Of a DNA stretch of 64,000 nucleotides, positions 12,192 to 57,100 are shown one piece after another (positions within the stretch are counted from its first letter, which is position 1; each line of letters starts with the position of its first letter). A program made the position numbers and the translations under genes. Below the pieces are notes generated by a model. It saw only the letters and a program-made list of their open reading frames with translations. It ran no database searches and was not told the origin of the DNA. Source of the DNA: Escherichia coli (lineage in GTDB: Bacteria; Pseudomonadota; Gammaproteobacteria; Enterobacterales; Enterobacteriaceae); the NCBI RefSeq assembly GCF_003018115.1, contig NZ_CP027457.1, one strand, 5' to 3'.

Positions 12192-12267
12192 TGGCTCCTC
12201 TGACTGGACTCGAACCAGTGACATACGGATTAACAGTCCGCCGTTCTACCGACTGAACTACAGAGGA
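12192..12267 (-). tRNA. asnT: tRNA-Asn (GTT)
   Basis: Reverse complement reads TCCTCTGTAGTTCAGTCGGTAGAACGGCGGACTGTTAATCCGTATGTCACTGGTTCGAGTCCAGTCAGAGGAGCCA, the canonical E. coli tRNA-Asn with CCA end. Confidence 0.9.
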
Positions 12268-13258: not shown

Positions 13259-13348
13259 GGAGAGATGCCGGAGCGGCTGAACGGACCGGTCTCGAAAACC
13301 GGAGTAGGGGCAACTCTACCGGGGGTTCAAATCCCCCTCTCTCCGCCA
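13259..13348 (+). tRNA. serU: tRNA-Ser (long variable arm; CGA anticodon type)
   Basis: Sequence GGAGAGATGCCGGAGCGGCTGAACGGACCGGTCTCGAAAACCGGAGTAGGGGCAACTCTACCGGGGGTTCAAATCCCCCTCTCTCCGCCA matches E. coli tRNA-Ser. Confidence 0.9.
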
Positions 13349-15619: not shown

Positions 15620-15672
15620 ATGTGAGCTGCGTAGGCCGGATAGGGCGCTCGCGCCACATCCGGCAGGGATAA
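15620..15672. repeat. REP (repetitive extragenic palindromic) element
   Basis: GTAGGCCGGATAGGGCGCTCGCGCCACATCCGGCAGGG in the zinT-msrQ intergenic region matches the REP consensus family. Confidence 0.5.
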
Positions 15673-21562: not shown

Positions 21563-22756
21563 TTAGAACTGGTAGACTAAGCCCACAGCAACGATATCAT
21601 CGGTAGCGATGCCGTTTGCTTCGTAGAAGTCATCGTCGTTGTCCAGCAGGTTGATTTTGTAATCAACATAGGTGGACATGTTTTTGTTGAAGTAGTAGGT
21701 CGCACCAATATCAACGTATTTAACCAGATCTTTATTGGTGTAACGTGGGTCGCCGTTGCCGTCATGAGCCCAACCGCCTAAATCCTTACCTTTAGATTGC
21801 AGGTAAGCGATGGACGGGCGCAGGCCAAAGTCGAACTGATACTGAGCAACAACTTCAAAGTTTTGGGTTTTGTTAGCGATGGCTGATCTTGATTCACCAT
21901 TATCAAACTCGCCACCACCATATGGGGTCATATTGCGAGTTTCAGCGTACATAGCTGCTAAATACACATTATTAGCATCATATTTTGCACCAACAGTCCA
22001 TGCTTCAGCGGTTTCACCACCAGCATTTCTGTTGCTATGGTTACGATCATTTAAACCAACTCCAACCTGACGATCTGAACGATCAGAGTTTGAATATGCA
22101 GCACCCAGACTTAAACCGAAGTCGAAGTCATAGGAAGTGGACATACCGAAACCATCACCATTTTCTTGAGCAATGTCCCGACCCTTACCCTTACCAGAAC
22201 CTTCCTGACCGAATGGACCACCGTTTTCGTTATTACTCTGATATTGCAGAGCAAAGTTCAGGCCATCGACCTGACCAAAGAAGCCATTGTTACGGTAGGT
22301 TGCAACACCATTAGCACGACCGTTCATGAAGTTGTCAGCGCCAGCATAGGTATCGCCACCAAATTCTGGCAGCATATCGGTCCATGCTTCTACGTCATAT
22401 ACGACACCGTAGTTACGACCATAGTCGAAAGTACCATTCTGACCAAAGCCTAAACCTGCAAATGCCAGACGCGTTGCAGTATTACCTTTGTCGCTTTCAG
22501 TACCGTTTGCGCCAATGTTAAATTCCCACTGACCGTAACCAGTGAATTGATCAGCGATCTGAGTTTCACCTTTGAAACCGATACGGGCATATGACATGTC
22601 GCCATCGCTGCCAGAATCATCAGAGAAGTAGTGCAGACCCACTACTTTTCCGTACAAATCCAGTTTATTACCATCTTTATTATAGACTTCAGCCGCATTT
22701 GCTGCGCCAGCAACTAATAACGCCGGGACCAGCATTGCCAGAACTTTTCTTTTCAT
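21563..22756 (-). CDS. yedS: General bacterial porin, OmpC/OmpF family, apparently intact (~397 aa)
   Basis: Signal peptide [21 protein letters not shown], porin N-terminal motif [16 protein letters not shown] and C-terminal ...[18 protein letters not shown] upstream of ATG at 22756. Confidence 0.8.
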
Positions 22757-23321
22757 TATGTATTCCCTTGTGATTATAATCTTCATGAATATATCAATAA
22801 GTGCCGTTATCCAAAAAAAGCACATTTGGATACTATTCTATGAAGTTCATTTTATTTTAAGGATTGCATGTAACAAATGTATTTAAAAGATTTCAAAATG
22901 TTTCTAATCTATTTAATATAATTCAGGATTATGAATTCTGAATATAAACATTCATGAAGATTATAAATGCATATCAATATGTTATGAGTTGAGCGGAAAC
23001 ATAGGGGGTATCAATGATTGTTGCGCCAAACGGCTGGTGTGATCAGGCGCACATTAATGAAGGCATAAAAAAAAGCCGGCATCATGCCGGCCCAAAAAAT
23101 ATAAACAAGACGATAAAAGGCTAATAACGGTAGCATCATGACACAGAATAATAAAAAGGTATAATTGTAATCAGTGCTAATATATTGATTAAATGAATTA
23201 ATAAAGCCGATATCAAAGATAAATAAAATCGCTCAAAACGATTTTTCCTGTATTCACTGCCGTTGCGCAAAATTTATCTATTTGTTCAAAAAATGATTGA
23301 GTCTTGACTGGCTCATCCAAT

Positions 23322-23687
23322 GTGGAAAAATGTGACTTTTATCACATAATAGTACTAAGTCTGAATTTTCCGGGTTATCTCAAAATGGAATACGGTTCGA
23401 CAAAGATGGAAGAGAGACTCTCTCGCAGCCCTGGCGGCAAACTGGCTTTGTGGGCTTTCTATACATGGTGTGGCTATTTCGTCTGGGCAATGGCGCGTTA
23501 CATCTGGGTGATGAGCCGGATCCCCGATGCCCCCGTGTCGGGATTTGAAAGCGATTTAGGCTCTACCGCGGGAAAGTGGTTAGGGGCACTGGTCGGATTT
23601 TTATTTATGGCTCTGGTCGGGGCATTGTTAGGCAGCATTGCCTGGTACACCCGACCTCGTCCCGCACGTAGCAGACGCTATGAATAA
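23322..23687 (+). CDS. yedR: Small inner-membrane protein (two predicted TM helices)
   Basis: ORF ending ...LGSIAWYTRPRPARSRRYE; the exact start is uncertain (GTG at 23322, TTG at 23304 or ATG at 23385). Confidence 0.55.
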   Translation: MEKCDFYHIIVLSLNFPGYLKMEYGSTKMEERLSRSPGGKLALWAFYTWCGYFVWAMARYIWVMSRIPDAPVSGFESDLGSTAGKWLGALVGFLFMALVGALLGSIAWYTRPRPARSRRYE

Positions 23688-23726: not shown

Positions 23727-24422
23727 ATGGACTTACAACACTGGCAGGCACAGTTCGAAAACTGGTTGAAAAACCATCATCAGCACCAGGACGCGGCCCA
23801 TGACGTGTGTCATTTTCGCCGCGTCTGGGCTACGGCACAGAAGCTGGCGGCAGATGACGATGTCGATATGCTGGTGATTTTGACCGCCTGTTATTTTCAC
23901 GATATTGTGAGCCTGGCGAAAAATCATCCGCAAAGGCAGCGTTCTTCAATCCTGGCGGCAGAAGAGACGCGTCGCCTGCTCCGTGAAGAGTTCGAGCAAT
24001 TTCCGGCGGAGAAAATCGAGGCCGTTTGTCATGCCATTGCCGCTCACAGTTTCAGCGCGCAAATCGCCCCCTTAACAACGGAAGCTAAAATCGTCCAGGA
24101 TGCGGATCGGCTGGAAGCCCTGGGGGCGATTGGCCTGGCGCGCGTGTTTGCCGTTTCAGGGGCATTGGGCGTGGCGCTGTTTGATGGTGAAGATCCGTTC
24201 GCACAGCATCGCCCGCTTGATGATAAACGCTACGCGCTGGATCATTTCCAGACTAAGTTGCTGAAGCTACCGCAAACCATGCAAACCGCAAGAGGCAAGC
24301 AGCTGGCGCAGCACAACGCGCATTTTTTAGTCGAGTTTATGGCGAAGCTCAGTGCCGAACTGGCGGGGGAGAATGAAGGTGTCGATCACAAGGTAATAGA
24401 TGCGTTTTCATCCGCTGGCTGA
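23727..24422 (+). CDS. yedJ: HD-domain phosphohydrolase (231 aa)
   Basis: HD motif region (HDVCHFRRV...YFHDIV) and full-length agreement with recalled YedJ. Confidence 0.85.
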
Positions 24423-31492: not shown

Positions 31493-31579
31493 AACACATC
31501 AGATTTCCTGGTGTAACGAATTTTTTAAGTGCTTCTTGCTTAAGCAAGTTTCATCCCGACCCCCTCAGGGTCGGGATTT
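31493..31579 (+). ncRNA. dsrA: DsrA small regulatory RNA (Hfq-dependent; acts on rpoS and hns mRNAs)
   Basis: Sequence AACACATCAGATTTCCTGGTGTAACGAATTTTTTAAGTGCTTCTTGCTTAAGCAAGTTTCATCCCGACCCCCTCAGGGTCGGGATTT matches DsrA including its terminal stem-loop and U-tract. Confidence 0.85.

Positions 31580-56994: not shown

Positions 56995-57100
<106 letters not shown>

Follow-up and report, generated by a model that had tools for sequence, protein, structure and literature searches.

The yedS-drpB intergenic region

The analysed window is a stretch of 64 kb (64,000 nucleotides) of the Escherichia coli contig NZ_CP027457.1. It contains the porin gene yedS on the minus strand and, on the plus strand, the gene yedR, which is now named drpB (Table 1). 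The two genes are divergent, and transcription of both heads away from a palindrome located between them. The gap separating them measures 562 bp when counted to the old GTG start of yedR and 628 bp when counted to the corrected ATG start of drpB. The GC content in the intergenic region around the palindrome is 25-37%, as compared to 45-58% in the flanking genes. For K-12 the gene order at this locus is reported as yedS'-rseX-drpB-yedJ (PMC7648144).

The plus strand at 23067-23099 reads AAAAAAAA-GCCGGCATCATGCCGGC-CC-AAAAAA. The palindrome proper is the 17-mer GCCGGCATCATGCCGGC (23075-23091), which has a run of eight A residues on its left and CC followed by six A residues on its right. Its arms, GCCGGCAT and ATGCCGGC, form a perfect inverted repeat of 8 bp around one central base, and the reverse complement of the 17-mer is the same sequence except for this base. 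The original prediction, which described a perfect inverted repeat with A-runs on both sides in an AT-rich region of about 560 bp with outwardly transcribed neighbours, was thus confirmed from the sequence; the size that it gave fits the old yedR start. The 17-mer occurs once in the 64-kb window, and shuffled sequences predict no occurrence.

Table 1. Coordinates of features at the rseX locus and of the DsrA sRNA in the window
Feature	Position	Strand	Basis or remarks
yedS, porin gene	22756..21563	-	397-aa ORF
3' poly(U) tract of RseX, 8 U (left A8 run of the plus strand)	23067..23074	-	sequence; end of K-12 rseX annotation maps to 23067
rseX, 91-nt sRNA RseX	23067..23157	-	RF01401 match; base-for-base alignment to K-12 b4603
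Terminator stem-loop of rseX	23073..23093	-	terminator scan, RNA folds, Rfam consensus structure
U/A-rich single-stranded stretch UUUAUAUUUUUU, directly 5' of the terminator	23094..23105	-	sequence; unpaired in fold
Weak 5' stem-loop of RseX, RNA nt 14-38, contains nt 27 difference	23120..23144	-	Rfam consensus structure, MFE fold, K-12 alignment
Putative sigma-70 promoter of rseX	23164..23192	-	-35 TTAATC (23192..23187), 17-bp spacer, -10 TACAAT (23169..23164)
yedR, now named drpB	23385-23687	+	corrected ATG 23385; old GTG 23322
DsrA sRNA	31493-31579	+	RF00014, 102.5 bits (gathering score 60)

Identification of RseX and structure of its terminator

A scan of the intergenic region with Rfam models, repeated on the whole window, gave a match to family RF01401 at 23157..23068 on the minus strand, with a score of 98 bits (gathering score 50) and an E-value of 3.4e-14. 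The match is full length, covering positions 1-94 of the 94 in the model with complete ends. The Rfam name of this family is 'rseX Hfq binding RNA', and the palindrome corresponds to the terminal helix of the model, which is followed by 7-8 U residues. In the curated record of K-12 MG1655 the ncRNA rseX (b4603) is annotated at NC_000913.3 2033649..2033739 as a 91-nt gene flanked by drpB and the yedS pseudogene. The K-12 and window genes are identical at 90 of the 91 positions, and their promoter regions and downstream flanks are the same. The sole difference is a U to A substitution at RNA nucleotide 27 (window position 23131), which belongs to the loop of the weak 5' hairpin. The synteny also agrees: rseX is located between drpB/yedR and yedS, is co-directional with yedS, and has the same neighbours in six other strains and in K-12. 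The window copy thus resembles K-12 RseX in position, in strand relative to the neighbouring genes, in its extent of 91 nt, in its promoter region and in its terminator, and differs from it in the substitution at nucleotide 27. A further difference is that yedS is a pseudogene in K-12 but intact in the window. Other Rfam families matched the locus at scores far under their gathering scores, these being RyhB (23 bits), Esr41 (19 bits) and STnc430 (21 bits); these identities were rejected, as such matches reflect a generic terminator shape only.

Read as a minus-strand transcript, the element has the sequence UUUAUAUUUUUU-GGGCCGGCA-UGA-UGCCGGCUU-UUUUUU, or UUUUUU-GGGCCGGCAUGAUGCCGGCUU-UUUUUU when written around the core palindrome. 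The hairpin GGGCCGGCA-UGA-UGCCGGCUU consists of nine base pairs (6 G-C, 1 A-U and 2 G-U) and a loop of 3 nt, and the 17-mer forms the core of this stem-loop. Folding of the hairpin with its flanks gave an energy of -14.6 kcal/mol. The hairpin is found in both the MFE and the centroid structure of the whole RseX RNA, and the bases that are paired in the prediction are the same as those paired in the RF01401 consensus structure. The first two residues of the U8 tract are able to pair with the GG at the base of the stem, and UUUAUAUUUUUU corresponds to the right A6 run of the plus strand. The transcribed strand therefore carries a stable G+C-rich stem-loop with a U-tract directly 3' of it, and judged from its sequence the palindrome with this tract has the classic form of a Rho-independent terminator.

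The terminator scan calls the element on the minus strand only (9 pairs, 6 G-C, then a T-run). The plus-strand hairpin runs into CCAAAAAA instead of a U-tail, so the element can terminate minus-strand transcription only; a plus-strand or bidirectional terminator was ruled out on the same grounds. The original prediction had missed that the U-tail exists on the minus strand only and that one of the two A-runs corresponds to the poly(U) tail and the other to the U-rich stretch preceding the hairpin.

The 3'-terminal module by which sRNAs bind Hfq reportedly combines a single-stranded U-rich stretch, the terminator hairpin behind it and a final poly-U tail no shorter than 6-7 U. RseX contains all three parts in its sequence, namely UUUAUAUUUUUU, the hairpin and the U8 tail, and by analogy with the general architecture of sRNAs these parts probably constitute an Hfq-binding module that protects the 3' end. 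Similar to RseX, the Hfq-dependent porin-regulating sRNAs MicA, MicC, MicF and RybB, as well as DsrA, have an A/U-rich single strand, then a G+C-rich hairpin and then 7-8 U in a row, but their terminators are unrelated in sequence to that of RseX.

We conclude with near certainty that the palindrome corresponds, at the DNA level, to the Rho-independent terminator of rseX. This minus-strand gene extends from about 23157 to 23067 and encodes a known trans-acting Hfq-dependent sRNA. The identity with rseX, the hairpin geometry, the strand specificity, the synteny and the conservation (see below) are established here. The element is therefore already known, as the terminator of a characterised sRNA. 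Among the possibilities raised in the original prediction was the terminator of an unannotated small transcript; the terminator of a small transcript is indeed what was found (RF01401, K-12 b4603), but the transcript is annotated in K-12 as rseX. The PGAP annotation shows no rseX feature in any of the RefSeq E. coli genomes inspected, and the curated K-12 MG1655 record was the only one examined in which rseX is listed. The hairpin looks like an orphan because the PGAP-annotated RefSeq genomes list no feature at rseX. The locus consequently seems empty in most records, and readers who work from the sequence only will rediscover an orphan hairpin; beyond correct annotation this has little significance.

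Conservation, rarity and alternative explanations

Of 5426 complete E. coli genomes, 4879 carry the 91-nt rseX sequence, as a single copy (median of one place per genome), and about 547 lack it. The intergenic region was found in its entirety in 4908 complete genomes. The exact allele of the window, with A at RNA nucleotide 27, was found in 7 of the 4879 genomes that carry rseX. The genomes closest to the window include O169:H41 strains. Comparison of five highly divergent E. coli copies with those of K-12 and the window showed variation in RNA nucleotides 6-10, in the loop of the 5' hairpin and in the length of the T-runs. The 17-bp palindrome, i.e. the hairpin core, is invariant in nine copies including that of E. 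albertii. No stem position varies among the copies collected, so the hairpin gives no support by covariation.

A scan for the exact palindrome across species returned at least 120 loci. Among the matches listed, the E. coli representative and E. albertii have a single locus each, and both loci were identified as rseX by BLAST and Rfam (89.6 and 86.7 bits, respectively, both scores exceeding the gathering threshold). The remaining matches listed are unrelated and occur singly, for the most part in genomes of high GC content; some resemble terminators of other genes, and others lack terminator-like flanks. Recurrence of the motif elsewhere in the genome had been put forward as a check on the element. 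The 17-mer is single in the window, and the rseX segment has a median of one place per E. coli genome. This does not refute the terminator, since a gene-specific terminator is expected to be non-recurrent. Likewise, missing 3' ends in Term-seq data of wild-type cells would not refute the terminator, because silencing by H-NS leaves RseX undetectable in the wild type (PMC8313858). A literature search found no paper combining RseX with Term-seq.

An operator at which a dimeric transcription factor regulates yedS, drpB or rseX could likewise take the form of a perfect 8+1+8 inverted repeat within a regulatory intergenic region, and a regulator binding site was among the functions first suggested. 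This suggestion gained no support, and we regard an operator as very improbable, since the rseX gene model explains the whole element as terminal helix and U-tract of RF01401. Counted from the rseX start, the palindrome lies 66-82 nt downstream, and its distance from the start of yedS exceeds 310 bp; this position is untypical for an operator. The geometry, with a G+C-rich 8-bp stem, a centre of 1-3 nt and flanking T/A runs, is that of a terminator. Moreover, the protein-occupancy peaks reported at rseX are those of Fis (-143 to -118), H-NS (-42 to -32) and Rob (+1 to +20), and none of these is at the terminator (PMC8313858). The H-NS peak coincides with a described H-NS motif at -42 to -32 of rseX (PMC8313858).

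The terminator of rseX has some likeness to repetitive extragenic palindromes of the REP/BIME type, as it is an extragenic, G+C-rich inverted repeat and starts with GCCGG, as REP elements do. A degenerate element of this type, proposed earlier as a REP-like remnant, has hardly any probability and was rejected on copy number and consensus. The palindrome differs from REP/BIME sequences in being single copy, in its short stem of 8-9 bp, in its T/A-run flanks and in being part of a defined transcript. The 91-nt segment occurs at a median of one place per E. coli genome and, among the matches listed, the exact palindrome has a single locus, inside rseX, in the E. coli representative and likewise in E. 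albertii. It also does not match a REP consensus sequence at up to 3 mismatches. As a positive control, the conserved REP tail CTTATCMGGCCTAC was found in the window at 15631-15644 (minus strand), 57014-57027 (plus strand) and 57064-57077 (minus strand), and the palindrome remained unmatched. The pair of REP tails at 57014-57077 resembles a BIME.

With respect to chance, perfect inverted repeats with 8-bp arms and loops of 1-8 nt are common in this DNA, with 21 in the window and about 7 in dinucleotide shuffles, and a loose terminator scan of a 751-bp region found one site against 0.5 +/- 0.7 expected, which is not significant alone. A strict configuration was defined as an arm with at least 5 of 8 bases G or C and, behind the stem, T at 7 or more of 8 positions. 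This occurs at two sites in the 64 kb, the terminators of rseX and DsrA, and was never obtained in 40 shuffles of the window; the DsrA terminator (31555-31575) is the only other terminator-like perfect hairpin of the strict type. That the palindrome is a functionless product of chance is practically excluded, and this reading is refuted by homology and conservation, as the element forms part of a full-length Rfam match and stays unchanged in E. albertii and in divergent lineages of E. coli, whereas adjacent positions vary.

Promoters, silencing and function of RseX

According to the account in PMC8313858, RseX was first predicted by Chen et al. in 2002, on the basis of a Rho-independent terminator and of a sigma-70 consensus lying upstream, and was isolated by Douchin et al. 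in 2006 as a multicopy suppressor of the essentiality of RseP. The RNA has a length of 91 nt and acts as a negative regulator of OmpA and OmpC (PMC7648144, PMC1804206). Repression of ompA and ompC by RseX was shown experimentally in K-12, as these papers and PMC8313858 state with citation of Douchin 2006. The repression proceeds through Hfq, rseX is silenced by H-NS, and fimB and ihfB are further targets (PMC8313858). In Northern blots of K-12, RseX species of about 91 nt and about 75 nt were visible only in delta-hns cells (PMC8313858). The occurrence of the species of about 75 nt indicates that the 3' or the 5' end of RseX is not unique. Native RseX has never been detected in wild-type K-12 (PMC8313858), and RseX was undetectable in Salmonella (PMC1804206). 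Termination at the rseX hairpin has accordingly been observed only under overexpression or hns deletion (PMC8313858, PMC1804206). Transposon-insertion (TraDIS) data for S. Typhimurium point to a possible requirement for RseX (PMC3632133). The omp-regulating sRNAs that were tested, including RseX, are not sigma-E dependent (PMC1804206). In its silencing by H-NS, RseX differs from sRNAs that are induced by sigma-E or EnvZ/OmpR (PMC8313858, PMC1804206).

The start site of rseX would be at 23157, 7 nt downstream of the -10 hexamer listed in Table 1. The -35 hexamer is weak, with 3 of 6 matching positions, which is under the threshold of the promoter scan; the hexamers were located separately, and their assignment to rseX is putative. 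A sigma-70 promoter of rseX is supported by 5' RACE, as PMC8313858 reports with citation of Douchin 2006. On the opposite strand, a near-consensus sigma-70-like promoter facing drpB is present at 23138-23165 (ATGACA, 16-bp spacer, TATAAT; 11 of 12 positions). Its -10 element overlaps the -10 region of rseX and its -35 element lies within the first 20 nt of rseX, which makes the two promoters back-to-back overlapping divergent ones. Both hexamers of the plus-strand site are invariant in seven divergent strains. From its sequence this site could be a drpB promoter, or it could be a spurious promoter in AT-rich DNA silenced by H-NS.

Downstream of the rseX terminator the co-directional yedS gene begins after about 310 bp and is preceded by promoter-like sites of its own at 22942..22915 and 22876..22849. 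In other strains the yedS orthologue is labelled 'porin OmpC' or 'porin' by PGAP. The minus strand also contains an ORF for 42 hydrophobic amino acids (MMLPLLAFYRLVYIFWAGMMPAFFYAFINVRLITPAVWRNNH, 23139..23011) which starts at nucleotide 19 of RseX and reads through the terminator. It was rejected as a coding sequence: it lacks a Shine-Dalgarno sequence, no stop codon occurs before the 3' end of the transcript, and in other strains the frame is broken or shifted by indels in T-runs, giving variants of 18, 31, 36, 39 and >51 amino acids. The ORF is probably a by-product of the U-rich sequence.

The proposed sequence of events at the locus is as follows. Upon transcription of the minus strand, the nascent RNA would fold into the G+C-rich hairpin, the U-run behind it would destabilise the RNA:DNA hybrid, and RNA polymerase would release the 91-nt transcript ahead of yedS. 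The terminator may thus insulate yedS, with its own promoter-like sites, from rseX transcription. The 3' structure, composed of the U-rich stretch, the hairpin and the poly-U tail, is of the type bound by Hfq and would protect the 3' end of the sRNA. The upstream part of RseX would pair with the ompA and ompC mRNAs, and with the later described fimB and ihfB mRNAs, leading to their repression. Normally rseX would remain unexpressed, because it is located in AT-rich DNA silenced by H-NS.

The site at which RseX pairs with ompA has not been experimentally mapped (PMC8313858). Duplex energies calculated for the body of RseX with the ompA, ompC and yedS leaders were no better than those of shuffled sequences; with the K-12 ompA and ompC leaders, 37% and 46% of the dinucleotide shuffles, respectively, did as well. 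The comparison does not discriminate: RseX is rich in U, and its shuffled versions pair equally well with leaders that are rich in A.

In strains with an intact yedS, rseX and yedS might together form one H-NS-silenced 'porin-swap' cassette, in which terminator read-through into yedS or competition between the divergent promoters sets the ratio of sRNA to porin mRNA. We consider this arrangement improbable. If it existed, lifting of the silencing would lead to production of YedS together with repression of OmpC and OmpA by RseX. The native role of RseX is poorly understood because H-NS silences the gene, and strains in which the neighbouring yedS porin gene is intact could help its study.

Further along the window, yedJ (23727-24422, plus strand) is an intact ORF of 231 amino acids, and in the near-identical strain F9792 it is annotated as frameshifted. 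On the other side of the locus, genes for tRNA-Asn (GTT) and tRNA-Ser (CGA) are located at 12192-12267 on the minus strand and at 13259-13348 on the plus strand, respectively.
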